From an uncultured Spirochaetales bacterium (lineage in GTDB: Bacteria > UBP6 > UBA1177), in assembly GCA_964630905.1 (NCBI GenBank), contig CAZVWR010000006.1, forward strand, positions 6,232 through 70,231: a DNA stretch of 64,000 bases, written 5' to 3'. The notes under the pieces were generated by a model, which saw nothing but the letters and a program-made list of their open reading frames with translations, searched no databases and was not told the origin of the DNA. The translations under genes and the position numbers were made by a program. Of this stretch, positions 4,611 through 57,056 are shown piece by piece (positions within the stretch are counted from its first letter, which is position 1; every line of letters starts with the position of its first letter).

Positions 4611-4634
4611 TATTTTCTTTTCGATCTTTTAAAC

Positions 4635-4725
<91 letters not shown>

Positions 4726-7360: not shown

Positions 7361-8173
7361 TTGGAGATGATCATGAAAGCGGCAATTATTCAAAACAATC
7401 CTGTATGGGGCGAAAAAAGCAGCAATATTAATGATTTGATAGAACTGATGGAAAAAGAGAAGGCAGATATTTATATCCTTCCCGAAATGGCTTACACCGG
7501 ATATCAGATCACTTCAAAAGAGGAGGCGGAAACCCTTGCCGACTCGGTTGATTCAGAAAATATCGGCCGTTTTGTGAGTTGGTCAAAAGAACATGACAGT
7601 GCAGTTATTCTCGGCTTTCCGGAAAAAGCGTCTGACGGTCATATTTATAACTCAAGTGTAATGATCACTCCGGAAGGGGAAGTGCACATTTACAGAAAAA
7701 CACACCTTTTTTATAAGGAGAAGCTTTTTTTTGCTCCCGGCAACACAGGATTTGATGTGTTTGAGTGGAGAGGAGTTAAAATCGGGCTTGCAATATGCTT
7801 TGACTGGTATTTTTCTGAAAGTTTCAGAACACTTGCGTTAATCGGGGCGGACATTATAGCACATTGCTCAAACCTTGTTATGCCTCACTGCCAGACAGTT
7901 GACTATGCCAGAGCAATTGAAAACAGAGTTTTTATTGCAACGGCAAACCGCATCGGATCTGAAGAAAGAGACGGCGAAAAACTCACTTTTACTGGTCAGA
8001 GCGTTCTTGTTTCACCCAAAGGAGAATATCTTATAAAAGCTCCGGCTGAAGAAACAGGGTGTTTTACGGCTCAAATTGATGTTGCAATGTCCCGCAATAA
8101 AAAAATTAATGAATTCAATGATGTAATTGCAGATAGAAGAGAGCTGTTCTATTGGGATCATCCTGTGAAATGA
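7361..8173 (+). CDS. carbon-nitrogen hydrolase family protein (nitrilase/amidase-like)
   Basis: Layout of the Glu-Lys-Cys catalytic triad: E in YILPEMAYTGY, K in YRKTHLF, C in AICFDWYF. The true start may be the third ATG at 7373. Confidence 0.75.
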   Translation: MEMIMKAAIIQNNPVWGEKSSNINDLIELMEKEKADIYILPEMAYTGYQITSKEEAETLADSVDSENIGRFVSWSKEHDSAVILGFPEKASDGHIYNSSVMITPEGEVHIYRKTHLFYKEKLFFAPGNTGFDVFEWRGVKIGLAICFDWYFSESFRTLALIGADIIAHCSNLVMPHCQTVDYARAIENRVFIATANRIGSEERDGEKLTFTGQSVLVSPKGEYLIKAPAEETGCFTAQIDVAMSRNKKINEFNDVIADRRELFYWDHPVK

Positions 8174-8188
8174 TCTGATAACGGGAGT

Positions 8189-11100: not shown

Positions 11101-13072
11101 AACGGATGATATTTCCTTCTTTTGTAAGGTAATAAGCAAGAATTTCAACAGGTCCGTGCATCGTTTCATCAAGAGTGATGTCTGTGCTCCCTTTTCCTTC
11201 CTTGAATTCGACAGTCTTCATCAGTCTTATCTGCCCGTCTGCTATCACATCGATATACGCTCTGTCGGGAAGCATTGACGGCTGCGGCATTTCAGGGTCG
11301 TATCCCGTAAAAATGTTGACGGTCATCGTATCTCCGGTGCCATAAATAGACGAATCTGTCGAAAGGAATACAAATTCGCTGTTGTCGTCTTTGGTGAAAA
11401 TAACATCGCTTTCAAATGTCTTGTCTTCGTATTTTACTGTAACTTTTACAGCTTCAGAATCTGTGAGAGCCATTTTAAACTCTGCAAAACCGCTTTCGCC
11501 GACAGTTATCTTTTCGGAATTTTCACCTGCTTTTACAGTGACTTCAGCCGCGAGCGGAGTTCCGTTCGGATCGGTGAGTATGAAGTACATATCCTGCTCA
11601 ATTCCGGGAAGCATTTTTCCTGCGGCCGGAACAAGTGTTGCGATCACAGGGGCTTTTACAACTTTTATTGTTTTAACTGTGGACTGTTCGTGGTCTGCGG
11701 TATCTGTGACCGTTATCTCAAATTTTACGGTTGCCTTTCCCTGATCAAGCTCGCTTCCTGTAAAATAGTCAGGAAGTTTTGCCTCAAAATTATATTTTCC
11801 ATCTTTAGTCAGAGTTGCATCAATTATTTTCACAGTATTTTCAGACACATCGAAAGTTTTTACTTCGATATGGACACTTCCTCCGCTCACCGGCTTTCCG
11901 TAGAAATAATTTGAAGTTATAGATCCTTTTACAGTTTCGCCGGGCATGTAAAAGCCTTTGTCGGCTTTGAAATCTATCCCGAACTTAGGAAGCACATATC
12001 TTTCGACAGTTATGGTCTTTTCAGAAGAAATATTCCCGTCAACTAAAGCAGAAATTGTGTAATTTCCGAGATTTACAAGATTTGCAAGTTTGAAGTCGGC
12101 GGCAAATATTCCGTATCCGCTGGTTTTTCCCTTTTCTTTATATACTTTATTGCCTTTCGGGTCGGTTATTTCAAGAGTTATGTCGCTGTCTGTGATCGGG
12201 TTCTTTGCAGGAAGTTCAAGTGAAAGTGTCCTGATGTGAATTGTCTGACCGGGCTGATAGAGAGGTTTGTCGGTTGTCAGAAGTATTTTGCTCAGTTGTT
12301 CCGCAACAACTTCAGTTTCAACGCTTCTTGTTCCGTATGCGGTTTCAGTTGTCACCACCATTTTAAGGGTGCCGAAAACCGATTCATCAACAGAAACAGG
12401 GACGGATGCCATTCCGGATTCATCAGTTTTTGCAGTGAATGTTCCGACAAGTTCCTCTCCGCTGAAAAGTTCGACATTGAGGTCTTTGTTCATGATAGGG
12501 TCGCCGCTCATTATCGGGTCGCCAGAAAGGACATCATTAACAAAAAGACGGAAAATTGATTCTTCACCCTTAATTATCTGAGCACTTCCAAGTATCTGGG
12601 TTTTTATTCTGGGTGATATCCGAAACATTGAAAGTTTGCCGTTGAGGTCGTAATCACTCCATTTTATTGAATATTTCATTAACAGGTTCGAAAGGTCCTC
12701 AAGCCCCGGAACATAATCTTTTCCGAGTTCGATTACTATTTCATTTGTAAGTGGAGTAATTGTCGATTTCACAGATCTTGTCAGATTTTCCACATTCGTT
12801 CCGTCAAGCTTGTCCACATTGACTGAAATATCGGCCATGATCGAAGGTGAGCTGCTTTCAAGCTGTGCAGGAATGTTAAGAAGGTATTTTTCCGATTCAT
12901 AGGAAATATAGATCTTAGCTTCATTTACTTCAAGAGGCCCTACTTTTATGACCCGGTCGCTTTCATCGTCAAAAGGATTTTTCTTTTTTCCTGTCTTAGA
13001 AGCCGAATTTTCACAGGAAAAAAGAAAAACAGCAAAAATCGTCATAATTACTGTCAAAAACTTAACTTTCAT
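8189..13072 (-). CDS. alpha-2-macroglobulin family lipoprotein with a thioester motif
   Basis: 1627 aa. Lipobox LFSC. The thioester-type motif is MPYGCFEQT (CxEQ). The large size and Ig-like repeat composition fit bacterial A2M. RBS GGGGAGAG lies upstream of the start. Confidence 0.8.
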   Translation of the reverse strand: MKVKFLTVIMTIFAVFLFSCENSASKTGKKKNPFDDESDRVIKVGPLEVNEAKIYISYESEKYLLNIPAQLESSSPSIMADISVNVDKLDGTNVENLTRSVKSTITPLTNEIVIELGKDYVPGLEDLSNLLMKYSIKWSDYDLNGKLSMFRISPRIKTQILGSAQIIKGEESIFRLFVNDVLSGDPIMSGDPIMNKDLNVELFSGEELVGTFTAKTDESGMASVPVSVDESVFGTLKMVVTTETAYGTRSVETEVVAEQLSKILLTTDKPLYQPGQTIHIRTLSLELPAKNPITDSDITLEITDPKGNKVYKEKGKTSGYGIFAADFKLANLVNLGNYTISALVDGNISSEKTITVERYVLPKFGIDFKADKGFYMPGETVKGSITSNYFYGKPVSGGSVHIEVKTFDVSENTVKIIDATLTKDGKYNFEAKLPDYFTGSELDQGKATVKFEITVTDTADHEQSTVKTIKVVKAPVIATLVPAAGKMLPGIEQDMYFILTDPNGTPLAAEVTVKAGENSEKITVGESGFAEFKMALTDSEAVKVTVKYEDKTFESDVIFTKDDNSEFVFLSTDSSIYGTGDTMTVNIFTGYDPEMPQPSMLPDRAYIDVIADGQIRLMKTVEFKEGKGSTDITLDETMHGPVEILAYYLTKEGNIIRSSKGVYVRRSSSLNIEFSTDKEEYKPRETAKAQFKIKDAEGKPVVAALGVAMVDEAVFHVMDFIPGMEQTYFNIESSVMESTYAIYGTSYEEIVTPVEDEEQAEEIEKKADAFFAGNAGNLSHGVAADDYSQSENAYLSASTAAAKAKADAIFKALDNGETSDCTNGAISEEELDKILAKPENTDPWDNIMSGTPGTADYEKALATLISAGPDETAGTKDDITMEIKVCEAQWGEMDNGEVSDEAATGGDPEDNGDSGDSGDTGGEPNAKVKVREWFPETLYYNPQLITDEKGVAELEVLMADSITTWRVTSLANSLNGGLGSSLDSIRVFQDFFVDIDFPVFLTQNDEVAVPVGIYNYLNESQKITLEADSEEWFEMTGSSAIEVTVPANSVSAAYFPIKVLKIGKHSLTVFAHGSKMSDAVKRSVTVKPDGIMADKSESALLNGNKSITITIPENAIADSAELFVKIYPGIMSQAVEGLDSMFQMPYGCFEQTSSATYPNILVLQYMIATDTLTPEIELKARDFITQGYQRLLTYEVTGGGFEWFGAEPAHFVLTAYGLLEFVDMSAVHEVDPAIITRTAAWMASKQNSDGSFIPTSGGIAEGAINNFENSLLRTTAYGAWALSRADKEETARKNAVKYLENNASKAEDTYSMAMTAIALVKNGGSATVINKLISDILDKKIEDEEGGAHWEQTVNTETYSSGDGANLETTALIGLLLLDKGGYSDVAGQILNWLVRQKDSFGNWSTTQGTILALRFMIESLNNGTSEADATVKVSANGSPETTIVITPENSDVLRLIDFKEHLVYGENNIEINFTGEGSMMYQATATWYIPGEDDTSTGPLTIDVNYDKTSLNVNDTVGVTVTVKNVSDAGVSMVLASIGIAPGFTLIPAQLDTAVEAGTYLQKYETTPRQVILYINHIANGATATFNFELLADYPMEGATGESSVNPYYNPEQKHNDQSQKLTVIE

Positions 13073-28275: not shown

Positions 28276-31200
28276 ATGCATCAGTTCATCAGAATAACAA
28301 ACGGTTGTGAGAACAATCTGAAAAATGTGAATGTTGAGATAGAAAAAGGGAAGTTCACGGTTGTTACGGGAGTTTCGGGAAGCGGTAAATCATCGTTGGT
28401 TTATGACACAATATTCAAGGAATCTCAGCGGTTATACTTTTCTACATTTCCAAGCTGGAGCAGAAAATATCTCGGTGTCGCAAACCGCCCGAAAGCTGAT
28501 TCAATTACAGGTCTTGATGCTGCAATTGCGATAGATCAGAAAAGTTCTGTTTCAAATCCGAAGTCGACTGTCGGAACTTTTTCAGGGATTTATGATCATC
28601 TGCGGCTCCTTTTCGCAAGGTTTGGAAGTGATGGAGTTCAAACAGGCGGTTTTTCCCGTTCACTTTTTTCATTCAATCTCGAAAAAGGATGGTGTGAAAA
28701 GTGCAAAGGTTTCGGTGTTGAAGATTTTCTTGACCCTGATCTCATTGTTGCAGAGTGGTCAAAATCGGTTAGAGAGCGGGCGTTGAAGATAACAGCACCA
28801 AACGGATACATCATCTATTCACAGGTGACTCTTGAAGTGCTTGACACAGTTTTCAAAGAGCACGGTTTTTCAATTGACACTCCGCTTGATCAACTGACTG
28901 AAGAACAGCTCAATGTCATGTTCTACGGCTCAGACCGGATAAAAGTGCCGTTTGGAAAGCACACTCTTGAAAGCAGGATGAAATGGACAGGCATCACAGT
29001 AAAACCAAGAGAAGAGGGGTTCTATCCCGGTTTCATTAATGTTATGAACGACATTTTAAAAAGAGACCGCAACGCAAATATCTTAAGATTCGTCCGGTCA
29101 GTTCCGTGTTCAGAGTGCAACGGGTCGCGACTTAACCCGAAAGTGCTCAAAGTGCTTTACAGATCAAGGAACATTGCTGAAATTGCCGACATGACTTTTG
29201 TGAAACTTGTTGAATTTCTTGAAGGTGTTGAAATAAAGAACGATGGTGAAAAAACACTTGTGCGGCAGATAGAAAAAATGGTAAAAACACTTATAAATTC
29301 AGGGCTTTCGTATCTTACTCTTTCGAGGACGGCAGACTCTCTTTCATCAGGCGAAGTTCAGCGGATCAGGATATCAGCGTTATCGGAAAGTGCCATTCGC
29401 GGGGCAACTTTTATTTTTGATGAACCCACTGCCGGTCTTCACGGTTTAGAATCGGGAGCGGTGATCGAACTCATTAAAAAGATAAGAGATAACGGCAACA
29501 CAGTGATAGCAGTCGAGCACGATATCAATACAATTCTCAATGCCGACAACATAATTGAAACAGGCCCCGGCGGTGGAGTCAACGGCGGAAACATAATCTT
29601 TTCAGGCAGTTTGCACGATTTTTGTGCCTTTGGGAAAGATATTATCTCTCCGACATTAAGAGCAATGCTTGAAAAAAGAGTTCCAAACGATACTGCATCT
29701 GAAAAAGATGAAATGATTCTAAGCAATTGCAACATTAATAATCTTGAAAATGTGACAGCGGTATTTAAGTCAGGTTCCATAAATGCGATATGCGGTGTAA
29801 GCGGATCGGGAAAGCGGTCGCTGATGAATTGTCTGATCGCAAAATTTGAAAAAGAATCAGCACCTTACATAAAGATAGACAGAACTCCGATAGGCAGAAC
29901 TCCGAGATCAAACCCTGCAACTTACACCGGAATAAGTGACAAAATAAGAGACATTTTCGCGTCACTCGTTTCATCAAAAAAAGCGAATCTTACAAAAAGC
30001 CATTTCTCTTTTAATTCTGAAGTGGGCAGATGCCCAAAATGTGAAGGGGCTGGAGTGATAGAAATAGGAATGAAATTCATGGGTTCTGTCAGAACAGTTT
30101 GTGAACTATGCAATGGAAAAAGATTCAACGATGAAGTTCTGAAAGTAAAATATAAAGATAAGACAATTTCAGATGTGCTGGATTTGTCAGTTGAAGAAGC
30201 CATTGAATTCTTTAAGGAATATCCTCAAATTGCAAAAACGCTCAAGATCCTTGATGATCTTGGCACAGGGTATCTTAAATTAGGACAGACATCTTCATCT
30301 CTTTCGGGCGGAGAAGCGCAGAGAATTAAACTCGCCACACACCTTTCAAAAGCAAAAAGGGGAGGAAATATTCTTTTTGAAGAGCCGTCATCGGGTCTTC
30401 ACTCTCTGGATGTGAAAAAACTCATCTGCGTACTTAAATCAAATATCAGCGAAGGTGATACAATATTTGCCATAGAAAACAATCCCTGCTTTATCATCGA
30501 AAGCGGTCACATCGTTGAACTCGGTCCGGATAGCGGTGAAAATGGAGGTGAAATCGTTTTTTCAGGAAGTCCGCAGGATCTGCTTGAGAAAGGATCGACT
30601 AAAACAGCAGAAGTCATCAGAAACTTTGTCAATAACAGCATGATGTTGACTGGTGTCGGGAATCATCACGATAACTATCTGGAAAAATTGGAGAATGATC
30701 TTGTTATAGAAGGGATTGAAACAAATAACCTTAAAAATATCACGCTGAGAATAAAGACGGGGAAGCTCAATGTTGTTGCGGGGGTTTCAGGCAGCGGCAA
30801 GACAAGTCTTTGTTTTGACACACTTTTTACTGAGTGCATAAACAGTTTTCTTGAAGGTGTTTCACCTTATGTCAAAACACAGATACTTAAAAAAAGAACT
30901 GATGAGATTTCAAAAAGTGAAGGGTTGATGGCACCTGTGGGGATTTCGGGGAAATTTACTGCAACAGGGGTCAGATCTACAGCCGGCACAGTCAGCGGAC
31001 TTTATGAGATACTCAGAATGCTCTATTCAAGGGCAGGAAAAAATAAAACCGGTGAGCCGTGCAGATTTTCGGCAGGGGACTTTTCATTTAATTCTGAAAC
31101 AGGGTCATGTGAAAAATGTCACGGAACAGCGGTAATTCTGCAGACAGACATAAAAAAAATTGTCACAAATCCTGAAAAGTCTTTCATCAACGGAGCCATA

Positions 31201-32961
31201 GACGGAACAAAGCAGGGAAAATTTTATGGTGAGGCATCGGGTCAGTTTGTTCACACCCTCATTGCAGCAGGGAATGAACTGAACATTGATTTTTCAAGGC
31301 CGGTTGCGGAACTTTCTGAAAATGAATTGAATATTGCTCTTTTTGGAGTTGCCGACAGAGAGTTTGCAGTTTCATGGCATTTTAAGAGGGGTACAGTTGA
31401 GGGGACTCACAATTTCAAAGGAAAGTGGACAGGGTTTGCAAATCTCATAACTGATGAATTTTACAGGTCAATCGGCAATAAAAATGAAAGTGTATTAAGA
31501 GATCTGATGGAAGAGGTCGTCTGTCCTGAATGTAATGGAAAGCGACTGAAAAAGGAACTGCTTGAAGTTGAATTTGCTAAAACTGAAGTTGCAGCGATAA
31601 ACAGTTTTTCAGCGATAGAATTAAAAAAGTTCATTGATAACGGACTGAATATGACAGAGCTTGAAAAAGCTGTTTTAAATACGCTGAAACCCGAAATGGA
31701 AAGCATACTCAACCGTCTGATAAAACTGGGACTTTCCCACATCTCAATTGACAGGGCAACTTCGACGATGTCACTTGGTGAAAGAGAACGGCTGAAGCTC
31801 GCAAAGAGCTGTCACGACGGACTGACAAACATAATTTACATAATTGATGAGCCGTCAAGAGGGGTAAGTGTAAAAGAGAGTGAAAATCTTGTTTCAATTC
31901 TGCGTGAGCTTACTGAAAAAGGGAACACAGTTGTTGCTGTGGAGCATGAGCCGGCAGTTATAAAATCGGCCGATCACATAATTGAACTTGGACCGGGATC
32001 GGGTCAGAAAGGGGGCGAGATCATTTTTGAAGGAACGGTTGAAAAACTCCTTGAAAAAGAGACTCCCACAGCTTTATCGCTCAAGTTCGTTCCCGAAAAA
32101 AGGATGTTGCATCTATCTGAATTTATTGAATTTAAAGTTGATGGTCCAAGAAATATTAAAAAGTTTGACCTCAAAATTCCATTAAAAGCGACAACTGTCA
32201 TCACAGGAGTTTCAGGAAGCGGCAAGACAACACTTTTAAAGGAAGTGATAGCGAAACGACTTGCATGCAAAGAAATTTTCTATAGCGAAAACCGTCCATT
32301 TCTGAGTACAACAAAACTTTCAACTGTTGCAACGATCACCGGCTTAAGCGATCTTGTTAAGAAGAAATTCGGCAAAGGTTTTAAAATAACTAAAGATAAT
32401 CTCTGCAAAAACTGCGGAGGGAGCGGTTACACAACTGTTTCACTTGATTATATCAGCGATTCTGAATCTCTCTGTCCTGATTGTGAAGGTTCCGGATACC
32501 GTGGCGATATACTCAATCAGAAATATAGAGGAAAGAACATATATGAACTCCTTTCAATGGAAGTCGATACAGCTCTCAAATTTTTTGCTGATGATAGCAA
32601 GATCATGAAAATATTGAATATTATGAATGACTGCGGACTCGGTTATCTCCATCTTGATCAGCAGACGAATTCCCTTTCAACAGGAGAAGTTCAGCGGCTT
32701 TCGCTTGCCGTCACCCTTTCAAAGTTTCTCCTGGGAAATGATTCAGAAAACAAGTTCTTTTTATTTGACGAACCGTCAACAGGACTCCATTTTTCAGACA
32801 TCACGCATCTGCTCAAGCTTTTCAGATCACTCAATGAAAAAGGGCACACAGTCATAATTGCAGAACATCGAAGTCAGATAATTCAAAATGCAGACTATAT
32901 CGTTGAACTCGGACCCGGAAGCGGCAAAGAGGGCGGGGAACTGCTTAATCAATCTACTTAA
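28276..32961 (+). CDS. tandem-duplicated UvrA-like ABC ATPase (two complete UvrA-type units fused, 1561 aa)
   Basis: Four Walker A motifs (GVSGSGKSSL, GVSGSGKRSL, GVSGSGKTSL, GVSGSGKTTL). Four ABC signature/Walker B pairs (LSSGEVQR..FIFDEPTAGLH, LSGGEAQR..LFEEPSSGLH, MSLGERER..IIDEPSRGV, LSTGEVQR..LFDEPSTGLH). UvrA hallmark PIGRTPRSNPATYTG. Several Cys-x2-Cys zinc modules. Confidence 0.8.
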   Translation: MHQFIRITNGCENNLKNVNVEIEKGKFTVVTGVSGSGKSSLVYDTIFKESQRLYFSTFPSWSRKYLGVANRPKADSITGLDAAIAIDQKSSVSNPKSTVGTFSGIYDHLRLLFARFGSDGVQTGGFSRSLFSFNLEKGWCEKCKGFGVEDFLDPDLIVAEWSKSVRERALKITAPNGYIIYSQVTLEVLDTVFKEHGFSIDTPLDQLTEEQLNVMFYGSDRIKVPFGKHTLESRMKWTGITVKPREEGFYPGFINVMNDILKRDRNANILRFVRSVPCSECNGSRLNPKVLKVLYRSRNIAEIADMTFVKLVEFLEGVEIKNDGEKTLVRQIEKMVKTLINSGLSYLTLSRTADSLSSGEVQRIRISALSESAIRGATFIFDEPTAGLHGLESGAVIELIKKIRDNGNTVIAVEHDINTILNADNIIETGPGGGVNGGNIIFSGSLHDFCAFGKDIISPTLRAMLEKRVPNDTASEKDEMILSNCNINNLENVTAVFKSGSINAICGVSGSGKRSLMNCLIAKFEKESAPYIKIDRTPIGRTPRSNPATYTGISDKIRDIFASLVSSKKANLTKSHFSFNSEVGRCPKCEGAGVIEIGMKFMGSVRTVCELCNGKRFNDEVLKVKYKDKTISDVLDLSVEEAIEFFKEYPQIAKTLKILDDLGTGYLKLGQTSSSLSGGEAQRIKLATHLSKAKRGGNILFEEPSSGLHSLDVKKLICVLKSNISEGDTIFAIENNPCFIIESGHIVELGPDSGENGGEIVFSGSPQDLLEKGSTKTAEVIRNFVNNSMMLTGVGNHHDNYLEKLENDLVIEGIETNNLKNITLRIKTGKLNVVAGVSGSGKTSLCFDTLFTECINSFLEGVSPYVKTQILKKRTDEISKSEGLMAPVGISGKFTATGVRSTAGTVSGLYEILRMLYSRAGKNKTGEPCRFSAGDFSFNSETGSCEKCHGTAVILQTDIKKIVTNPEKSFINGAIDGTKQGKFYGEASGQFVHTLIAAGNELNIDFSRPVAELSENELNIALFGVADREFAVSWHFKRGTVEGTHNFKGKWTGFANLITDEFYRSIGNKNESVLRDLMEEVVCPECNGKRLKKELLEVEFAKTEVAAINSFSAIELKKFIDNGLNMTELEKAVLNTLKPEMESILNRLIKLGLSHISIDRATSTMSLGERERLKLAKSCHDGLTNIIYIIDEPSRGVSVKESENLVSILRELTEKGNTVVAVEHEPAVIKSADHIIELGPGSGQKGGEIIFEGTVEKLLEKETPTALSLKFVPEKRMLHLSEFIEFKVDGPRNIKKFDLKIPLKATTVITGVSGSGKTTLLKEVIAKRLACKEIFYSENRPFLSTTKLSTVATITGLSDLVKKKFGKGFKITKDNLCKNCGGSGYTTVSLDYISDSESLCPDCEGSGYRGDILNQKYRGKNIYELLSMEVDTALKFFADDSKIMKILNIMNDCGLGYLHLDQQTNSLSTGEVQRLSLAVTLSKFLLGNDSENKFFLFDEPSTGLHFSDITHLLKLFRSLNEKGHTVIIAEHRSQIIQNADYIVELGPGSGKEGGELLNQST

Positions 32962-37790: not shown

Positions 37791-40700
37791 TTATGAATCG
37801 AGCGTGCAGCCCTCATCTATCTGACCGTTACAGTTATTGTCTTTTTCATCACAAATTTCAGGTTCCGGAATGCAGCCGGGAGGAGGAGGACAACCTTCAT
37901 CAATTTCACCGTCACAATCGTTATCTATTCCGTCTTCACATATTTCAGCCTCTGGAACACAGACATCGCAACCCTCGTCAATGTCACCGTCACAGTCGTT
38001 ATCTTTTGTGTCACAGCTTTCCGGTTCAGGGACACATGTCGGATCGCATCCTTCATCTATCTTTCCATCGCAATCGTTGTCTTTGTTATCTCCGCATATT
38101 TCAGGGCTTGGAATACATGTCGGGCAACCTTCGTCCACATTACCGTCACAGTCATTATCTGTTTTATCCCAGCAGATTTCCGGTTTCGGTATGCAACCGC
38201 CGCTTCCAGGGCATCCTTCATCAACAGATCCGTTACAGTCGTTATCTATTCCGTCACCGCAAACTTCAGGACCTGTCGGGACACAGCTTGGGGTACATCC
38301 TTCATCGATCATGCTGTTGCAGTCGTTATCTATTCCGTCACCGCAAACTTCAGGACCGGTGGGAGTACAATCAGGAGTTGTCGGGCATCCTTCATCTATC
38401 TGTCCGTTGCAATTGTTATCTATTCCGTCACCGCAAACTTCAGGACCTGTCGGGACACAGCCGGAATAAGTGCAGCCCTCATCAACTATGTCATCACAGT
38501 CATTGTCAAATCCGTCACAGACTTCAGGCTGAGGAATACAAGTCGGACAACCATTGTCAACAATTTCGTCGCAGTCATTATCAAGTCCGTCTCCGCAGAT
38601 CTCCGGTTCGACAATACATCCGCCCGGATCGCAGTTTTCATCGATCAGTCCGTTGCAGTTGTTGTCAATGCCGTCATCACAGACTTCGGGGCCTGTCGGA
38701 ATACATGCAGGACATCCATCATCAATGATTCCGTCGCAGTCGTTATCAGTATTATCTCCGCAGATCTCCCATCCGCAGTCACATGTTATTCCGTCATCAA
38801 CGAGTCCATTACAGTTGTTGTCCTGATAGTCACACACTTCATTTGTCGGGGTGCAAGTAACCTTACATGCAACTCTAATGTTTACACCTACTTTGGAAGG
38901 ATCACTTGAAGAAGAAGCATAACTCTTGAGGTCGTTGCATGACTGTCCATTCAGTTCAAGAGTCTGTGTTCCGCCATCATATGTCCATCCGTTCGGAGTC
39001 CCGGGTGCTACAGAATAGAAAGTTCCGTTATTATCAATTCTTACCTGCATTCTTGTCGGGTCGTCGTTGCCTCCGTTAAGAGGAACTGTGACAGTGCACG
39101 GTATCATGGAGGCAGAAATTGAATTAAGTGCCGCAATGATGCTGTTGGTGTCAGTGATCTTATACCATGTGGTTGTTCCGCCTGCCGCAGCAAGTTGTAC
39201 CATATTGCTTTCGTTAACTCCTGCAAATCCCATATAATAAACTTTTATTCCGGCATTTTTAAGATTCGTTGTGTAAGTCAGTGCGTCAGACATACTGAAA
39301 TCGGCTGATTCAGCGTCTGTAATGACAACAACTGCCTTTCCTCTATCTGCAGAAAGGGTATCAGGTGTAAATTCGTAGTATTGTCTGATCCTTGTGTTGT
39401 TAAGTGCATAAGGAAGCGGTGTTCCTCCGTTAGGGGAGACATTGCACGGACTAAAATTGGCAAATGTAACATTATTTCTTAGATCGATACACTCTTTCGG
39501 TTCATCACTGTCACTGCTTGTTCCCGGAAAGTATGCTGCTCCGACATTAAAATCTGTTGAGAGCTGAGTGGCTTTTGAATTAAGAGCAGACATCAGCACT
39601 TCCCATCTGGTTCCGGGATCATTGCATTCACCCCATCCGTCATCTCCGTTTGTGCAGGCATCCATCGATCCCGAATTATCAAGAAGGAAGTAAACATTGG
39701 GCTTGATCCTTGTTCCGGTGACATCAGCGGTTTCACAAGGTGTCGGGACAGTTATTGCTTCACAGGCATCACCGATCCCGTTTGCAGGATTTGTGTCAAC
39801 CTGATTAAAGTTTGCTATATTGGGGCAGTTGTCACAGACATCACCCACACCGTCACCGTCTGCATCAGCCTGTCCTGCATTTGAAACTTCAGGGCAGTTG
39901 TCATAAGGGTTTTCAACTCCGTCACCGTCAATATCATTGTCATACGGTTCCTCTTCACAGGCATCACCGGTTCCGTTACTGTTTGAATCTGCCTGATTGA
40001 AGTTCGCGGCAAGAGGACAGTTGTCACAGACATCGCCTACACCGTCACCGTCAAAATCAGCCTGTCCTGAATTGCTTACGGATGGGCAGTTATCAACAGA
40101 ATTAGGAATAGTGTCTCCATCGCTGTCAGCACATGCGGAAGGATCCTGATTTGCATTTGCAACAGTAGGACAGTTGTCGCACACATTGCCGACTTTGTCA
40201 CCGTCGCTGTCTTCCTGATCCGCATTGGCAAGGGTCGGGCAGTTGTCTTCCCAGTCATAAAGTCCGTCATTGTCTCCATCTGCATCAGCACAGACTGTCG
40301 GATCCTGATCGGCATTCGGAATTGCAGGACAGTTGTCACAGGCGTTGCCGACTTTATCTCCATCTGTATCAAGCTGATCAGCATTGGCAACGGAAGGGCA
40401 GTTGTCTTCCCAGTCAAAAAGCCCGTCTTTATCCGAATCAGCCGCTTCACAGGTCGCTATATCCTGATTGGCATTCGGTATAAGAGGACAATTGTCGCAT
40501 GCGTCACCGACACCGTCTTTATCTGTATCTGTCTGTGAAGGATTTGAAACCGTCGGACAGTTGTCGTCCCAGTTGACAAATCCGTCACCATCGACATCAA
40601 TTGTTGCAGATTCACAGGCATTACCTGTTCCGTTGCTGTTACTGTCTGCCTGATTGGCATTTGCAATTGCAGGACAGTTGTCACAGACATTTCCCACCCC

Positions 40701-42440
40701 GTCCTTGTCTCCATCTTCCTGTCCGGGATTATAAACATCTGGACAGTTATCGTCCCAGTTGTAAAGTCCGTCGTCGTCAGGATCTGCATCTTCACAGGCG
40801 TCACCGATACCATTGCTGTTTGAATCTGTCTGAAGAGCATTAGCGATCGGAACGCAGTTGTCACAGGCATCGCCTATTCCATCACCGTCAGTATCTGTCT
40901 GAGCGTCATTGGAAACAGTCGGGCAGTTGTCATAAATATCATCTATACCGTCGCTGTCGCTATCGGTAACAGCAGGTTCACAGGCATTTCCAGTGCCGTT
41001 GGTGTCATCATCAAGCTGGTTGTAATTTGCCACATTTGGACAGTTGTCACAGACATCGCCGATCCCGTCTTTATCTGTATCAAGCTGATCATTGTTTGCA
41101 ATATCCGGACAGTTGTCGGTAGCATCAACAATTCCGTCACTGTCGCTATCGGTATTAAGCGGACTTTCCTGACAGACATCACCCATTCCGTTGCTGTCAG
41201 AATCAAGCTGATCATAATTCGCAAAAAGAGGACAGTTGTCACATGCATCTCCAAGAAGGTCGCCGTCGCTGTCTTTCTGGTCAGAATTCGGAACTGTCGG
41301 ACAATTATCAGCACTGTCAAGGATACCGTCGCTATCTGTGTCAACATTCTCACAGGCGTTTCCTTCTCCATCGGTATCATCATCAAGCTGATCGGCATTT
41401 GCAACGGCAGGGCAGTTATCACAGGCATCACCCACACCGTCACCGTCTGAATCGACCTGACCGGGATTATGAGTGTTTTCGCAGTTGTCAGATTCGTCAG
41501 GAATACCGTCCCCATCCTTGTCATTGGGTTCGCAGGCGTTCCCTACACCGTTTCCGTCATAGTCAAGCTGTTTTGAATTTGCTACTTCAGGACAGTTATC
41601 GCAAATATCACCGATTCCGTCTTTGTCAAGATCTTCCTGATCCGGATTGGATGCATATCTGCAGTTATCATTAAAATCAAGGATTCCATCCTCATCTGTA
41701 TCAACAGGTTCACAAGCGTCACCTACATCGTTGGAATCCGAGTTTATCTGATCGTGGTTTGCTGTATAGACGCAATTGTCACATACATCACCAATGCCGT
41801 CACTGTCTGTATCAAGCTGATCTGAGTTTTCGATGAAAGGGCAGTTGTCAACAAGATCTCTGAATCCGTCATGGTCTGTGTCAAGAAGGAGTGTATCGTT
41901 CTGGCAGACATCACCGACACCGTCCTTATCTGTATCGGTCTGTTTAATATTGGCGTGATTCGGGCAGTTGTCACAGACATCACCTTTTCTGTCTTTGTCA
42001 GCATCGAGCTGGTCGGCATTTTTGATGTCAGGACAATTATCATTGCAATCCATAATCCCGTCACCGTCTGTATCAAAGTCAAGAACATCGCATCCGCAAA
42101 TTCCGGGATCTGTTTTTTCAGGATTGTCGGGACAGAGGTCGATTATGTCTTCATCTGTTTCAACAATATTGTCCGGGTCTTCATTGTCAACAGGTTCATC
42201 ATCATCCGGAATAACCTCGTTATCTTCAGGCTGATTATCATCTTTTTTCACAGTATCCTTGTCGGGAACTGTAACTTCATCATCTGTTACAGGAAGGGAG
42301 TCTGACGAACCTTCATCATCGGTAATGTTGTTTGTGTCATTACCGCCTGTGTTGTCATCAACCTTGCTTTTTTTCCCGCTGTCACAGGATGCAAAGAAAA
42401 TAATTGAAAAGATTACAATAATAAAAGAAAGTTTCTTCAT
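37791..42440 (-). CDS. giant surface lipoprotein with thrombospondin type-3 repeats, a VWA domain and MopE-like Cys-rich repeats
   Basis: Lipobox FFASCDSG. There are more than 15 TSP3 units (D.D.DG..D..DNCP...N..Q.D.D.DG.GD.CDNC). The VWA MIDAS motif is VYFLLDNSGSM. About 13 C-terminal repeats fit EVCGDGIDNDCNG.IDEGC, a MopE-like putative metal-binding motif. Confidence 0.8.
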   Translation of the reverse strand: MKKLSFIIVIFSIIFFASCDSGKKSKVDDNTGGNDTNNITDDEGSSDSLPVTDDEVTVPDKDTVKKDDNQPEDNEVIPDDDEPVDNEDPDNIVETDEDIIDLCPDNPEKTDPGICGCDVLDFDTDGDGIMDCNDNCPDIKNADQLDADKDRKGDVCDNCPNHANIKQTDTDKDGVGDVCQNDTLLLDTDHDGFRDLVDNCPFIENSDQLDTDSDGIGDVCDNCVYTANHDQINSDSNDVGDACEPVDTDEDGILDFNDNCRYASNPDQEDLDKDGIGDICDNCPEVANSKQLDYDGNGVGNACEPNDKDGDGIPDESDNCENTHNPGQVDSDGDGVGDACDNCPAVANADQLDDDTDGEGNACENVDTDSDGILDSADNCPTVPNSDQKDSDGDLLGDACDNCPLFANYDQLDSDSNGMGDVCQESPLNTDSDSDGIVDATDNCPDIANNDQLDTDKDGIGDVCDNCPNVANYNQLDDDTNGTGNACEPAVTDSDSDGIDDIYDNCPTVSNDAQTDTDGDGIGDACDNCVPIANALQTDSNSNGIGDACEDADPDDDGLYNWDDNCPDVYNPGQEDGDKDGVGNVCDNCPAIANANQADSNSNGTGNACESATIDVDGDGFVNWDDNCPTVSNPSQTDTDKDGVGDACDNCPLIPNANQDIATCEAADSDKDGLFDWEDNCPSVANADQLDTDGDKVGNACDNCPAIPNADQDPTVCADADGDNDGLYDWEDNCPTLANADQEDSDGDKVGNVCDNCPTVANANQDPSACADSDGDTIPNSVDNCPSVSNSGQADFDGDGVGDVCDNCPLAANFNQADSNSNGTGDACEEEPYDNDIDGDGVENPYDNCPEVSNAGQADADGDGVGDVCDNCPNIANFNQVDTNPANGIGDACEAITVPTPCETADVTGTRIKPNVYFLLDNSGSMDACTNGDDGWGECNDPGTRWEVLMSALNSKATQLSTDFNVGAAYFPGTSSDSDEPKECIDLRNNVTFANFSPCNVSPNGGTPLPYALNNTRIRQYYEFTPDTLSADRGKAVVVITDAESADFSMSDALTYTTNLKNAGIKVYYMGFAGVNESNMVQLAAAGGTTTWYKITDTNSIIAALNSISASMIPCTVTVPLNGGNDDPTRMQVRIDNNGTFYSVAPGTPNGWTYDGGTQTLELNGQSCNDLKSYASSSSDPSKVGVNIRVACKVTCTPTNEVCDYQDNNCNGLVDDGITCDCGWEICGDNTDNDCDGIIDDGCPACIPTGPEVCDDGIDNNCNGLIDENCDPGGCIVEPEICGDGLDNDCDEIVDNGCPTCIPQPEVCDGFDNDCDDIVDEGCTYSGCVPTGPEVCGDGIDNNCNGQIDEGCPTTPDCTPTGPEVCGDGIDNDCNSMIDEGCTPSCVPTGPEVCGDGIDNDCNGSVDEGCPGSGGCIPKPEICWDKTDNDCDGNVDEGCPTCIPSPEICGDNKDNDCDGKIDEGCDPTCVPEPESCDTKDNDCDGDIDEGCDVCVPEAEICEDGIDNDCDGEIDEGCPPPPGCIPEPEICDEKDNNCNGQIDEGCTLDS

Positions 42441-47987: not shown

Positions 47988-48332
47988 GGGGACGACATGG
48001 TTTCGACGGGGAGGCTGGAGCTTTCAAGTTGCATGCCGAGGCGCCGCTGGCCTCGTAAAAAGCGGCAAAACAAGAAAAGCAAATAATTTTGCACTAGCAG
48101 CTTAAGCTGCTCGTCAGTCTGCGGTAATTCTCGCGGCTTCAGAACTGGCGCTAAACAGCGGGATAGCAAACTGAACCCCTCCGCAGGGTGAGGTAAGCGA
48201 AATCAAGTGCGGAAAAGTGTGACGGATCCTGCTGCCGGGAGCCCGATCACTTACTAAATCGGACAGCTAAGCATGTAGACGCTCGATTGACCCCCTTTTC
48301 GGACGCGGGTTCGATTCCCGCCGTCTCCACCA
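47988..48332 (+). ncRNA. ssrA: transfer-messenger RNA (tmRNA)
   Basis: 5' GGGGACGACATGGTTTCGACGGG. Conserved GCATGCCGAGG...GGCCTCGTAAAAAGCGGCAAAA. The tag reading frame at 48079-48105 (GCA AAT AAT TTT GCA CTA GCA GCT TAA) encodes ANNFALAA. The 3' T-arm and acceptor are GGACGCGGGTTCGATTCCCGCCGTCTCCACCA. Confidence 0.9.
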
Positions 48333-48446
48333 TTCGACTCGCTAAAGCTTTGGTTGGCAAAATATTCAAATTTATTCCTTTGACATAATTTTTTCTTAAT
48401 AGTATTCTGTTTTGATTGTTCAGTGTGTGATAATAAGGAGAAAAAA

Positions 48447-49013
48447 ATGGTTAAAAGATTCGATCCTGCAAAACTGCATGAGCTTGTGAAAGAAGTGGCA
48501 AATCTGGAAATGCCGAAAGAGGAGAAGTTCAAACTGCTTGTTCAGAAAATTGATCATGAATATCCCGGGAAGCTCAACAGAAAGGAATTTTCGTGGATCT
48601 TCAACAATGCTAACGGAGCAATGGGGATTATGACACTTTTATACGGATCTCTGAGCGAATATCTCATAATTTTCGGTTCACCGATCGGGACTGAAGGACA
48701 TTCAGGAAGATACTGGGCGAATGTTCACGACATAATGATCGAAGGGGAGATGTGGACTTATGATGAAGGAACTATTGACCGCAAGGTTTTCAAGCCGGGT
48801 GACTGGGCGCATCTGAAGTTCAGAAGATCAAAGGGCTACTGCATCCGCGAAGAAGGCTGGATGCTTGAATATACATCGGGCGCTATTCCTACAATGCTTC
48901 CGATGGGAATATGGGACAACCTTTTCAGCAATCTTGACCTCAAAAGCGTAGTTCAGCTTTTCTGGCAGTACGGCGGCATGGTGATAAAAAATCTGTTAAG
49001 AGGAAGATTCTGA
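48447..49013 (+). CDS. ERG2 / sigma-1-receptor family protein (bacterial homolog lacking the N-terminal TM helix)
   Basis: Long colinear match to human sigma-1 receptor / fungal ERG2 C-terminal cupin region: [42 protein letters not shown] versus [42 protein letters not shown]; also [16 protein letters not shown] versus TWMVEYGRGVIPSTL. Strong RBS AAGGAG before the ATG at 48447. Confidence 0.75.
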   Translation: [188 protein letters not shown]

Positions 49014-49017
49014 AAAT

Positions 49018-49866
49018 ATGAAGGATTATTTTTCAAAATTTTCCTTTCTGCTGGACCTTGTTTCTTTCGGTGCAGTAGTAATTTTTGCAAACTATATGGA
49101 ATGGACGGCAAAAGATCTGCTATGGAGTTTGTGGATAAGCAGTCTGACAATCGGTTATTTCACTCTTTTAGCAGGTATCGGCGGAAATATGATCAGGGGA
49201 AGGATGGCTGATGAGCAGATCCCACAGAATGAAAGTAAAAACGAAAAGCAAGTTCCACCAGGAGCACCTCTTGCTGTGTTTTTCCTTATACCGATCGTGG
49301 CAATATTCCGGTTTTCAATTATCACCCTTATTTTTGCTGTTTTAGCCGCAATAAGTGTTACGGCGGCAGTCATTAAGTACAAAAGGGAACGGGCAGGACT
49401 GGATAACGACCATTTTTTAATCAATTTTATGCTTAATTTCCCAGCCGGTTTATTTCTACTCATTTTTTTTACGATCCATTTCGGCGGATTTCATTTTGTC
49501 CACAGCATTTTTCTTAACGGCATGTTCCCGATATTAAATGAAACTCCGTTCGGTAAGACTCCCGGTCAAACCGGATTTTTCTTTTTTGATCTAATTGAGG
49601 TAAGCTTCCGTAATTACTGGCTTTTTATTGTTGCAAGCGCCGCGTCATCATTTGAGAGCATTTTTAAAACGATGAAAGGGCGTGAGATAAATTTCATGCT
49701 TGAGCCGTATAAAAATGTCGTAAAAATGCATTTAATGATTTTTGTCATCGCCTTTGCAGGAATGGCAGGACTTTATAATTTCATACTTTATGCAACGCTC
49801 ATCCTCTATTTTTTTCCTGTCGGGAAAATGATCAGAAAAAAGAAAACAGATGCTGTCTCTGTTTGA
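49018..49866 (+). CDS. polytopic integral membrane protein of unknown function
   Basis: 282 aa, at least six hydrophobic segments. It starts 5 nt after the ERG2-like stop, so it is probably co-transcribed. Confidence 0.5.
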   Translation: MKDYFSKFSFLLDLVSFGAVVIFANYMEWTAKDLLWSLWISSLTIGYFTLLAGIGGNMIRGRMADEQIPQNESKNEKQVPPGAPLAVFFLIPIVAIFRFSIITLIFAVLAAISVTAAVIKYKRERAGLDNDHFLINFMLNFPAGLFLLIFFTIHFGGFHFVHSIFLNGMFPILNETPFGKTPGQTGFFFFDLIEVSFRNYWLFIVASAASSFESIFKTMKGREINFMLEPYKNVVKMHLMIFVIAFAGMAGLYNFILYATLILYFFPVGKMIRKKKTDAVSV

Positions 49867-49925
49867 CATTTACAGTAACAATTCTTATCATATCGATGCT
49901 TTTAATTTGCAGAGGGAGGGAGTCT

Positions 49926-53677: not shown

Positions 53678-55450
53678 ATGTCTCAAAAGATTGAAAGTGA
53701 CAAGCTGCTGGTAAAGGATGTTTTTACAAAGTGGTATAGAATTCCAGAGTATCAGCGTCCTTATGTTTGGGGGTCTGATCAAGTGATTGAGCTGTTGGAT
53801 GATGTGTATCAAGCAAGCAGCACGAATCCCCAATCTCAATATTTTCTTGGTTCGATGGTTCTGAGAAAAAGACAAAAAAAAGAAGGTTCTCTTGAATATG
53901 AAGAGTTTGACTTGCTTGATGGACAACAACGGCTAACCACCTTGTTTCTTCTTACTGCTGTAGTGCGAGATTTAACCCCATCAACAAACAAAAGCAGGAT
54001 TGAAACATGTAGAAATAGCATTTTCCAGATGGAAAACAGTGATGACAACATTCCCGAAAGAATGAGAATCGTTTTTGACATAAGAGATAAGGTTCGAGAT
54101 TTTATAAATAATTTTGTTAAAAATGATAAAAGCACAGAAAACGAGGATGAATTAAAATCACTTTCAGTAAAAAAAGACGAAGATATCTCAATAAGAAATA
54201 TGGCCAATGCAATCTTAGAAATGAGAAAATACTTTAGCAATAATAGCAAGTCTATTGATAATTTTTTCCCGTATTTGCGTTCTAATGTGTTGATGATTTA
54301 TGTTGCTGCAGAAGAACTTGAAGATGCCTTCCATCTCTTTACAGTGATGAACAACAGGGGCATTAAGCTGAGAAATAGTGATATTTTAAAAGCCGAAAAT
54401 CTTGCACTAGTTAAGAATGAAGTTGACAGGTCTTCTTACGCTAGAAAATGGGAAAATATTGAAGAGTTTTTTGGTGAAGATTTTGATAATTTCCTTTCTC
54501 ATATTAGAACAATTCTTGTTAAATCCAAAGCAGGATATAATTTGTTAAAGGAGTTCGAAGAAAATATCTATAATCCGCGTGAATTTGACCGTGAAATAAA
54601 AGAATATAAAAGTAAGCCGGCATTGTTGACAAAAGGAAAGGAAACATTTGATTTTATTGGAAAATACCATGAGCACTACAAATTTCTTTTTGAAGATGAA
54701 AATTACCAGATAAACAATAATTTTGAGTTTCACAACCTAATTGTTCTTATGAAAAAAGGATTTGAGGCTGATTTTTGGATAGCGCCTCTTTTACGGTATT
54801 ATGATAAATTCAGAACAAATAACTTGGTTGAATTTTTAAAAAAGCTTGATAACAAGTTTTCATCAGACTGGATAATAGGACTGACTCCTACTTCCAGAAT
54901 AGAAAATGTGAATGCTATAATTAGGAAAATAGACAATTCAGATAAATCGGAGGCAGTTTTAAATTCTAAGACCTTGCAAATCAATATTGATAGACTAATT
55001 GATGCTATACATTCACCAATGTATGGTAGAAGGTGTGCAAAGTATATTATGTTAAAAATAGATAAAATTATTTTGGGTAGTAGCACAAAGCTTAATCCTC
55101 CAGAAACGGTTAGCATTGAACATATACTTCCACGGAATCCAAGTCCAGGAAGTGAATGGCTAAAAATATTTAATGAGTCAGAGCGAGAAGAGCTTACAGA
55201 TAAAATTGGCAACCTAATGTTGATCTCCCGGAGAAAGAATTCTTCTCTAAATAACTATGATTTCAAGTTTAAAAAAGAGAAATACTTTAAAGAAAACATA
55301 GAATTATTTAGCAATTCAATAAGAATATACAAGGATAACTCGAATTGGTCTCCAGACAGCCTGAAAAAAAATCATTTATTCCTTTTAAAAGAAATAGCGA
55401 AGGAGTATGGTTTTTCTCTAAGCGAAGAATTTATGAAGACTTATGAATAA
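53678..55450 (+). CDS. GmrSD-family type IV (modification-dependent) restriction endonuclease: DUF262 ParB-like N-domain fused to a DUF1524 HNH-like C-domain
   Basis: N-terminal DUF262 motifs WYRIPEYQRPYVWG and DGQQRLTTL. C-terminal DUF1524 His-Me finger SIEHILPRNP...NLMLISRRKNSSLNN. The RBS GGAG precedes the ATG at 53678; the ORF track starts at 53651. Confidence 0.8.
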   Translation: MSQKIESDKLLVKDVFTKWYRIPEYQRPYVWGSDQVIELLDDVYQASSTNPQSQYFLGSMVLRKRQKKEGSLEYEEFDLLDGQQRLTTLFLLTAVVRDLTPSTNKSRIETCRNSIFQMENSDDNIPERMRIVFDIRDKVRDFINNFVKNDKSTENEDELKSLSVKKDEDISIRNMANAILEMRKYFSNNSKSIDNFFPYLRSNVLMIYVAAEELEDAFHLFTVMNNRGIKLRNSDILKAENLALVKNEVDRSSYARKWENIEEFFGEDFDNFLSHIRTILVKSKAGYNLLKEFEENIYNPREFDREIKEYKSKPALLTKGKETFDFIGKYHEHYKFLFEDENYQINNNFEFHNLIVLMKKGFEADFWIAPLLRYYDKFRTNNLVEFLKKLDNKFSSDWIIGLTPTSRIENVNAIIRKIDNSDKSEAVLNSKTLQINIDRLIDAIHSPMYGRRCAKYIMLKIDKIILGSSTKLNPPETVSIEHILPRNPSPGSEWLKIFNESEREELTDKIGNLMLISRRKNSSLNNYDFKFKKEKYFKENIELFSNSIRIYKDNSNWSPDSLKKNHLFLLKEIAKEYGFSLSEEFMKTYE

Positions 55451-57056
55451 TAATATTAACCCCCAATACGACACAATAATCATAGGTGCGGGACTTAGCG
55501 GTCTGACTTGCGGAGCGCTGCTCAGTCGTGCCGGGATGAAAGTTGCTGTGCTTGAAATGGATGCGAAACCCGGTGGTTATCTTGCGGGTTTTGAAAGGAA
55601 GGGTTTCCGTTTTGATTCTTCGATCCACTGGCTTAATCAATGTGGTGAAAACGGTCTTGTGACAAGGGTTTTTAATGCGATAGATACTGATCATCCGAAA
55701 GTTTCTTTGCAGCAAAACATCAGAAAAACGGTGACAGATTCGTTCAGTTATCTTCTTACAAACAATCCAGATGAATTGAGAGATGCTCTGATTGAAAAGT
55801 TCCCTCATGAAAAGAGCGGAATAATGCGGTTTTTTAAAGATGCATGGAAGATCGCAAAAGGTTTTAAAAATTACGGAAGCAGTTTTCGCAGTATGCAGAC
55901 AAGGGATCTTTTTGAAAAGCCGTATTACGGATTGAAAATGGCAAAGTTCGGGCTGACATTCATTCCGCACGCTTTCTACGGTGGGGATGAAGGGGTTATT
56001 AAAGGTCTGAAAAGATATTTCAGCGATCCGGATCTTCTTAAATTCTGGTCTGCCGAAAGCGATCTTCTTTCGTGTCTTATCCCTATCGCATGGGCTTACA
56101 ACAAAGATTTTCAGCTTCCTCCGACTGGTGGCGGACAGGTTTTTGCAAACTGGCTTTCAGGATCAATTGTTAAATCAGGCGGGGATATATTTTATAAAAC
56201 AAAAGCAGGGAAAATTGTTAATGCCCGGAAAAAAGCAGTTCAGGTAATTGCAAATAATAATGGAACTGAACTTAAATTTGATGCCCGTTTTGTAGTTGCG
56301 GCAATGGATGTGGAAACCCTTTATGAAAAAATAATGGACATTTCACTTTCTGAAGACAAGTTCCTGAAAAGATTGAGAAATGCAGAGCTTTACAGTTCAG
56401 CGGTAACAGTCTCGATCGGGCTTGACTGTCCTGCGGAATCGCTTGGATTTAATGATGATCTGACATTGATATCAAAAGAGAACATAAAGAGGTCTGACCA
56501 TATCTGCAGCGATCCTTTGAAAAGCGACATATCGGTTTTTTCTCCTTCAGTCAGAGACAGTTCAATGGCTCCTGCCGGTAAAGGGACTCTCACAATATAC
56601 TGTCCTGCATATTACAGTGATTTCAAAGAGTTATCTAAAGATGAATATGTGAAATTCAAAAATGATTTTGCACGGATTCTCATTGACCGTGTTGAAACGG
56701 CATTATCAAAAGAGATCCAATCTCATATTGAGTTCATGGATGTTGCAACTCCTGTCACATATCACCGCTACACAGGTAACAGAGAAGGCGTAATGATGGG
56801 TGCAAGACCGGGAAAGGCAAATTATAAAGCAAAAATAGCACATTACAAAACGCCGCTTGAAAATGTTTTCCTGTGCGGTCACTGGTCTGCTCTGGGCGGA
56901 GGTGTTCCTATCGCAGTTTCAACTGCTGCAAATGCGGCATTGCTTGTCCTGAAAAAGGATAAAAGCACTGTTTTTAAACCGCTTGGTAAATATTTTGACG
57001 GTTCAGTTTCAGTTCAAGACTTTAATAAGTATTTGAAAAGATCGAAAAATATCTAG
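55443..57056 (+). CDS. FAD-dependent oxidoreductase of the phytoene-desaturase (CrtI-like) family
   Basis: N-terminal dinucleotide-binding YDTIIIGAGLSGLTCGALLSRAGMKVAVLEMDAKPGGY. 537 aa. It overlaps the GmrSD gene by 8 bp. Confidence 0.7.
   Translation: MNNNINPQYDTIIIGAGLSGLTCGALLSRAGMKVAVLEMDAKPGGYLAGFERKGFRFDSSIHWLNQCGENGLVTRVFNAIDTDHPKVSLQQNIRKTVTDSFSYLLTNNPDELRDALIEKFPHEKSGIMRFFKDAWKIAKGFKNYGSSFRSMQTRDLFEKPYYGLKMAKFGLTFIPHAFYGGDEGVIKGLKRYFSDPDLLKFWSAESDLLSCLIPIAWAYNKDFQLPPTGGGQVFANWLSGSIVKSGGDIFYKTKAGKIVNARKKAVQVIANNNGTELKFDARFVVAAMDVETLYEKIMDISLSEDKFLKRLRNAELYSSAVTVSIGLDCPAESLGFNDDLTLISKENIKRSDHICSDPLKSDISVFSPSVRDSSMAPAGKGTLTIYCPAYYSDFKELSKDEYVKFKNDFARILIDRVETALSKEIQSHIEFMDVATPVTYHRYTGNREGVMMGARPGKANYKAKIAHYKTPLENVFLCGHWSALGGGVPIAVSTAANAALLVLKKDKSTVFKPLGKYFDGSVSVQDFNKYLKRSKNI

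Follow-up and report, generated by a model that had tools for sequence, protein, structure and literature searches.

We studied a 64,000-nucleotide stretch of DNA from an uncultured Spirochaetales bacterium (contig CAZVWR010000006.1; the whole stretch is called the window below), in which a gene at 48447..49013 on the positive strand raises the question of what a protein resembling the sigma-1 receptor (S1R) of animals and the sterol C-8 isomerase ERG2 of fungi does in a bacterium. The 188-residue product is a stand-alone cytoplasmic member of an anchor-less, S1R-type subfamily that is sparse across prokaryotes, a placement that drew on Pfam, phmmer searches of the PDB, AlphaFold2, Foldseek, motif typing and the ratio of nonsynonymous to synonymous differences (pN/pS). 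We propose, with modest confidence, an isomerase-like protein that modifies or binds a polycyclic or isoprenoid lipid outside the canonical sterol pathway.

A sequence-only reading of the locus had taken the gene for a bacterial ERG2/S1R homolog, and the profile and structure searches confirmed this. The Pfam model ERG2_Sigma1R (PF04622) matched the protein with 197 bits (cutoff 21; E 3.3e-58), a score far beyond marginal, over residues 5-186 (182 of the 188 residues) and profile positions 24-209 of 210, which is a wider coverage than the ~130 residues first aligned by eye with the cupin-like ligand-binding domain. Sigma-1 receptors were the only matches of phmmer among PDB sequences, human S1R (5HK1) with E 7.6e-29, and BLASTP gave 36% identity over 165 amino acids with human S1R and 34% over 192 amino acids with Saccharomyces cerevisiae ERG2. 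The AlphaFold2 model, made with 30 homologs, had a predicted local distance difference test (pLDDT) score of 89.9 and a predicted template-modelling score (pTM) of 0.88, and consisted of 10 strands and 5 helices forming a cupin-like beta-barrel with N-terminal helices alongside and C-terminal helices that close it. In a Foldseek comparison of this model with the PDB the best 42 matches were all S1R chains (template-modelling score, TM-score, 0.88-0.91; root-mean-square deviation 1.6-2.1 Å), followed by generic cupins with TM-scores below 0.5. The cupin fold was thus kept on superposition with S1R.

The residues associated with ligand binding were also conserved. Tyr72 (48660-48662), Asp95 (48729-48731) and Glu141 (48867-48869, within the motif WMLEY) aligned with S1R Y103, D126 and E172, respectively, so that both acidic residues singled out in the sequence-only reading are present, and the model places the Glu141-Asp95-Tyr72 triad in what is predicted to be a buried position in a hydrophobic pocket. 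The absence of the eukaryotic N-terminal transmembrane anchor was equally borne out: the highest mean Kyte-Doolittle value over 19 residues was 1.47 and no segment exceeded 1.6, while the same scan detected the hydrophobic segment 8-33 in human S1R. The bacterial protein starts where S1R residue ~33 aligns and has a hydrophilic N-terminus; its last helix (residues 165-184) is amphipathic (hydrophobic moment muH 0.44, hydrophobicity H 0.35). The ATG at 48447 was preferred as start codon to a GTG at 48423 because an AAGGAG Shine-Dalgarno sequence (48435..48440, positive strand, read from the sequence) lies 6 nt before it, and homologs begin at the same position with the pattern M-x-x-x-F-D-P. 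Upstream, at 48380..48408 on the positive strand, the sequence TTGACA, a 17 nt spacer and TATTCT (10 of 12 consensus matches) form a sigma-70-like promoter candidate; since the consensus scan found no more sites in the region than in shuffled sequences, it is a candidate only.

The gene is clearly functional and under very strong purifying selection, because its pN/pS of 0.018-0.028 is far below the values of 0.12-0.13 for iPGM and 0.15-0.25 for the DUF6498 gene that follows it (see below). Compared with its counterpart in a sister species (L005, 3327-3893; the related loci are designated L001, L002 and so on), the gene was 97% identical at the DNA level, the flanks being 87-91% identical, and its pS of 0.12 was below that of the flanking genes (0.34). 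Besides selection on the protein, this low pS may point to constraint on codons or to a recombination event.

How unusual is such a gene in a prokaryote? The family had been described in the sequence-only reading as essentially eukaryotic, and this has to be corrected. Of 185,579 species representatives of prokaryotes, 207 encode a relative; a search of metagenomic and genomic proteins gave 374 short homologs, and an exhaustive profile search yielded 1,289 family clusters at 50% identity. The 90% cluster of the window protein already carries the names 'ERG2 family protein' (NCBI) and 'C-8 sterol isomerase' (IMG). Bacterial ERG2 homologs were noted in Plesiocystis and mycobacteria in 2009 by Desmond and Gribaldo, who took the few copies known at that time to have been transferred from eukaryotes (PMC2817430), and the myxobacterial ERG2 was discussed in 2021 by Hoshino and Gaucher, who treated it as a pathway gene (PMC8237579). 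The window protein is therefore an added member of a family already annotated and known in bacteria. The prokaryotic relatives are ~185-190 amino acids long, anchor-less and 45-99% identical to the window protein. The loci compared here came from the best 80 of the 207 genomes, ranked by similarity to the window protein, and the class counts given below are biased in consequence; they belonged mostly to Myxococcota and also to Mycobacterium, Chloroflexia, Gammaproteobacteria, the window's own lineage and two metagenome-assembled genomes (MAGs) of Heimdallarchaeota. The two Heimdallarchaeota copies (L051, 10001-10570, on a 42 kb contig; L066, 9980-10651, on a 362 kb contig) were of the S1R type and 51% identical to the window protein. 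The L066 copy scored 202 bits on the Pfam model, and its neighbours, among them ribosomal protein L13e, a Memo-like protein and TldD/PmbA, fit a genuine archaeal contig; these copies could be relevant to where the eukaryotic sigma-1/ERG2 family came from.

We aligned the window protein with human S1R, four fungal ERG2 sequences (P0261, P0285, P0353 and P0332) and the prokaryotic homologs, and two motif classes emerged. The S1R type reads HSGRYxAxVxD, with the Asp at S1R position 126, and [WFY]M[LV]EY; the ERG2 type reads HTG(V/R)(H/F)xADDYF, with Asp-Asp at 123/124 and Phe at 126, and [FW]ALE[LY]. All four fungal sequences showed HTGVHFADDYF and FALEL. The window protein lacks the Asp-Asp at 123/124 and the Phe at 126 and fell into the S1R type, as did human S1R and, of the 80 prokaryotic loci, 78. 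Across these 80 loci Y103 and E172 were invariant (80/80) and D126 was present in 78/80. Among 132 typed representatives of the family, 82 were S1R-type and 47 ERG2-type, and each class had members with and without an N-terminal hydrophobic anchor. A crude neighbour-joining tree, based on 162 columns from which the motif columns had been left out, had one clade that gathered 27 of the 29 ERG2-type sequences and no S1R-type sequence out of 87, with a mean bootstrap consistency of 0.96. Judged from the alignment, Asp95 is a mark of the sigma-1 side of the family and not of the side to which the only proven isomerases belong.

The pocket as a whole was more mixed than the triad. At 21 positions that line the S1R pocket in 5HK1, eight residues were identical in the window protein, including Y103, D126 and E172, and most of the others were conservative hydrophobic changes. 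Seven clearly differed from S1R: V84N, W89A, H154L, V162Y, W164I, T181M and T202L. Six pocket residues matched yeast ERG2 over S1R (N at 84, A at 89, L at 154, Y at 162, M at 181 and G at 185).

The relatives had no enzymatic pathway context in common. BLAST clustering of flanking open reading frames (ORFs) together with a Pfam census revealed no conserved neighbour of any kind across lineages, and the individual contexts all differed; the most widely shared neighbour, a TetR regulator in mycobacteria, occurred in at most seven loci. The census of 142 flanking ORFs, called crudely in the high-GC genomes with some antisense frames picked, counted TetR 8, SDR 4, START-like 3 and KshA_C 2, and its top 25 families included no cyclase, epoxidase or P450. 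The only steroid-flavoured neighbour in the window's wider clade was a Steroid_dh membrane protein (PF02544, the steroid 5-alpha-reductase/polyprenol reductase family) at 9382-10161 on the negative strand of L092, located 0.8 kb downstream of a 62%-identical S1R-type gene (8001-8558).

Under the function proposed above, the two amphipathic C-terminal helices would, like those of S1R, lie against the membrane from the cytoplasmic side, and a hydrophobic membrane-derived ligand would enter the barrel. There the Glu/Asp pair might bind a cationic centre or protonate a double bond, the latter being the chemistry by which ERG2 moves the delta-8 bond via a carbocation. We think that the lipid acted on would be an exogenous sterol or another triterpenoid; both ligand and activity we infer. 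Several points weigh against this proposal. A search of the literature found no biochemical work on any prokaryotic S1R-type protein. No isomerase activity could be detected in human S1R (10.1101/333765), the one characterised protein that shares the Asp126 motif, and this favours a role in binding only. A MAG of the Nannocystaceae (L044) carries an S1R-type copy, and because elaborated sterols occur in the genus Nannocystis (PMC2817430), S1R-type proteins may be ordinary sterol isomerases in some bacteria. The analysis covered the 64 kb of the window and ~2 kb on its 3' side, and a sterol or hopanoid pathway may lie elsewhere in the genome. Finally, the tight spacing (4-7 nt) between this gene and the DUF6498 gene in two strains, with their nearness in a third (see below), could reflect a local functional link.

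A more novel reading concerns the ancestry of the protein. The anchor-less S1R-type proteins could be a prokaryotic branch of the sigma-1 receptor and not of the ERG2 isomerase, and could bind or transform a non-sterol membrane lipid. The common Asp126/Glu172/Tyr103 triad speaks for it, as does the occurrence of these proteins in bacteria not known to make sterols and in Heimdallarchaeota; we hold it possible, if on the unlikely side. If true, it would point to a pre-eukaryotic origin of the sigma-1 receptor and would offer a soluble, easily expressed model for the receptor's native ligand and activity.

A purely non-catalytic protein, S1R-like in binding a ligand and devoid of the anchor, for instance a lipid or amine sensor or a chaperone, is a further candidate, which we regard as unlikely. 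It would fit the S1R-specific combination of Asp126, Glu172 and Tyr103, the inactivity of S1R as an isomerase and the lack of a conserved enzymatic pathway context, and the structures of S1R crystallized with progesterone and with dehydroepiandrosterone (DHEA) sulfate are among the structural matches of the model. However, the seven pocket differences from S1R are marked, neither an output domain nor a regulator or client gene is a conserved neighbour, and small stand-alone bacterial proteins of enzyme families are probably more often enzymes than not.

The IMG name points to a third possibility, a true C-8 sterol isomerase that would convert delta-8 to delta-7 as a step in bacterial de novo sterol synthesis. 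The family does contain ERG2, and Glu141 aligns with a conserved ERG2 glutamate, its equivalent in Candida albicans Erg2 being Glu174 (PMC8230181). The S1R-type form is found in Myxococcota, including the Nannocystaceae MAG, and it was as a pathway gene that the myxobacterial ERG2 was treated in PMC8237579. However, a cyclase, epoxidase, CYP51, C-4 demethylase or reductase was found neither in the 64 kb window nor in the ~2 kb seen beyond its 3' end, no sterol-pathway gene stood beside the relatives, and the Asp126 motif is that of the non-isomerase S1R type and not of fungal ERG2. The sterol-modifying enzyme suggested by the sequence-only reading loses ground on the same two counts, the missing sterol genes and an Asp that is an S1R-type feature. 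Moreover, the same subfamily occurs in genomes of Mycobacterium, Chloroflexia, Gammaproteobacteria and Heimdallarchaeota, which are not known as sterol producers. The isolate names of the closest MAGs (sludge digester, Zodletone spring and SURF subsurface) hint, as names alone, at anoxic habitats, in which O2-dependent synthesis would be unlikely. Taken together, we consider a dedicated sterol isomerase improbable.

The gene immediately downstream calls for separate treatment, since it had been suggested as a split anchor or partner. It lies at 49018..49866 on the positive strand, 4 nt after the ERG2-like stop codon, and encodes a 282-residue DUF6498 protein (Pfam PF20108; E 4.8e-12, 46 bits, cutoff 23.7) with ~7-9 predicted helices, in agreement with its first description as a polytopic membrane protein. 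All 88 homologs found matched PF20108, and some of the more distant ones had C-terminal TPR repeats. Six residues were invariant between the protein and 41 homologs, namely H154, H159 and H162 in the cluster HFGGFHFVHS, and H238, N233 and Y231; they are located in predicted transmembrane helices, which suggests a putative metal, heme or catalytic site. The AlphaFold2 model was confident (pLDDT 86.7) and its fold had no match in the PDB. Between the two genes there was no convincing terminator, and co-transcription, as claimed earlier, appears plausible. A second sigma-70-like promoter candidate (49863..49891, positive strand; TTGACA, 17 nt spacer, TATCAT; 11 of 12 matches) precedes the next gene, whose product is a Cys-rich lipoprotein with a MAM domain. 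The candidate sets the 3' limit of the two-gene unit, and L005, which lacks DUF6498, has kept it.

A two-subunit membrane enzyme, in which DUF6498 replaces the eukaryotic transmembrane anchor, would fit the common strand, the 4-nt gap without a convincing terminator and the invariant His, Asn and Tyr residues, which suggest an active or metal-binding site. The adjacency is found in the window's strain (L001-L004) and is repeated in L085, whose DUF6498 protein is 89% identical, with a spacing of 4-7 nt; the remaining place with both genes near each other is L086/87, where in L086 a distance of 3.4 kb, occupied by two genes on the opposite strand, separates them. Elsewhere the pair falls apart. 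The sister species L005, with flanks at 88-91% DNA identity, keeps a 99% identical ERG2-like protein and has 72 nt in the place of the DUF6498 gene, and L006, L007 and L008 (83-90% identical) also lack it. We searched six-frame ORFs of all loci with phmmer from the single sequence and then with a profile hidden Markov model of 42 sequences (E<=1), and no DUF6498 was detected within +/-10 kb in L005-L084 and L090-L094. Conversely, among the four contexts of DUF6498 homologs inspected, those of the homologs at 58-61% identity had no ERG2 gene nearby. The constraint on DUF6498 is also about tenfold weaker than that on the ERG2-like gene, and its fold has no sterol-related match in the PDB. With adjacency confined to the window's strain and one relative, synteny largely speaks against DUF6498 as a partner or replacement anchor, and a two-subunit enzyme is very improbable. 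The comparison indicates that the DUF6498 gene is probably a lineage-specific neighbour which shares the transcript by chance, neither subunit nor anchor of the ERG2-like protein.

The ERG2-like gene is part of an ordinary bacterial chromosome. The GC content of the 48-50 kb region is 0.416, within the 0.34-0.48 seen across the window and with no local break. The window carries dapF, prmA, tadA with a tRNA cluster, alpha-2-macroglobulin, pgm, glgC, GH57 and RNase II genes, and further a UvrA-like protein, lepB, clpA, aat, gpmI and a pgsA-like gene. Upstream of the ERG2-like gene is the tmRNA gene ssrA (47988..48332, positive strand; ARAGORN, and Rfam RF00023 with 177 bits over the full length), a landmark that it follows in the window, L005, L006 and L086. 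An identical protein is encoded on an NCBI contig and on several Logan metagenome contigs, and three related MAGs carry the NCBI label Spirochaetales. The first description of the family in eukaryotes and the earlier reading of bacterial copies as transfers (PMC2817430) could suggest contamination with eukaryotic DNA, or a gene that passed from a eukaryote to the bacterium very recently. Both are excluded for practical purposes, because GC is even (~41%), the neighbours are bacterial housekeeping genes with a tmRNA upstream, a Shine-Dalgarno sequence is present, the position is kept in related MAGs, and hundreds of prokaryotic sequences, at 45-99% identity, are closer to the protein than yeast and human, at 34-36%.

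Several observations concern the locus itself and the rest of the window. The tag peptide that ARAGORN reported for the tmRNA (GAKQRDSKLNPSAG) looks mis-called; the frame at 48061-48105 reads SGKTRKANNFALAA followed by a stop codon, with the canonical ...ALAA ending, and is kept in L005. The ARAGORN tag of the L086 copy was implausible as well. The region 3' of ssrA is a variable islet (window 48333-49900; L005 2221-3965; L006 471-3416; L086 925-6000). In L005 ssrA and the ERG2-like gene are separated by an additional gene of the GIY-YIG family and by one for a Cys-rich lipoprotein, and DUF6498 is lacking; in L006 a small cupin gene precedes the ERG2-like gene and an IS110-type transposase gene follows it; in L086 two opposite-strand genes, one of them AAA_14/DUF4143, separate ERG2 and DUF6498. 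The ERG2-like gene was kept through all these rearrangements. Farther downstream, between gpmI and a FAD oxidoreductase gene, the segment 52852-55450 encodes a four-helix-bundle protein of the '23S rRNA IVP' type with a TIGR04258 suffix domain and a GmrSD-type restriction endonuclease; in L085 gpmI directly adjoins the oxidoreductase gene, and the segment looks like an inserted defence islet. The oxidoreductase (55443-57056) is of the CrtI/carotenoid-isomerase family (TIGR02730, E 5.5e-43, at 147 bits against a cutoff of 587). No other gene in the window is isoprenoid-flavoured; its distance from the ERG2-like gene is 6 kb, and its position is syntenic in L085.

At the other end of the window, the gene for the tRNA adenosine deaminase tadA (4019-4516) directly follows that of its substrate tRNA-Arg(ACG) (3930-4006), within a cluster of four tRNA-Ser genes (3720-4725), a layout partly kept in L010 and L032. 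Three giant genes were found at 28276-32961, 37791-42440 and 8189-13072; the products are, in this order, a 1,561-residue double-length UvrA-like ABC ATPase, a 1,549-residue protein that combines a VWA domain and MopE metal-binding motifs with 20 thrombospondin type-3 repeats, and a 1,627-residue bacterial alpha-2-macroglobulin.

One added family member changes little in itself, and it is the picture of the family that becomes sharper: most prokaryotic members are anchor-less, carry the Asp126 motif and stand alone, with no sterol-pathway context. The automatic label 'C-8 sterol isomerase' is over-confident and should be used with caution. For the proposed lipid-modifying or lipid-binding protein, the practical value is that of a tractable soluble homolog with which to approach the native role of the sigma-1 fold, the endogenous function of the human receptor being still debated.

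Compared with known systems, fungal ERG2 belongs to the same Pfam family and has in common with the window protein the Glu at S1R position 172, Tyr103 and much of the barrel core; unlike the window protein, it has an N-terminal transmembrane anchor and works in a complete sterol pathway, none of which was found in the window or beside the homologs. The animal sigma-1 receptor (SIGMAR1; 5HK1, 6DK0 and 7W2B) is alike in fold (TM-score 0.91, 36% identity, C-terminal helices over the barrel) and in the motifs HSGRYWAxxxD with Asp126 and WM[LV]EY with Glu172, as well as in Tyr103, whereas the window protein has no N-terminal transmembrane helix, is encoded on a bacterial chromosome and shows non-conservative changes at 7 of 21 pocket positions, including W89A, H154L and W164I. 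With respect to the prokaryotic 'ERG2 family proteins' of myxobacteria and mycobacteria, the window protein differs in that its host is no known sterol producer and in its position adjoining ssrA and its DUF6498 neighbour, both local peculiarities; these proteins are its own group.

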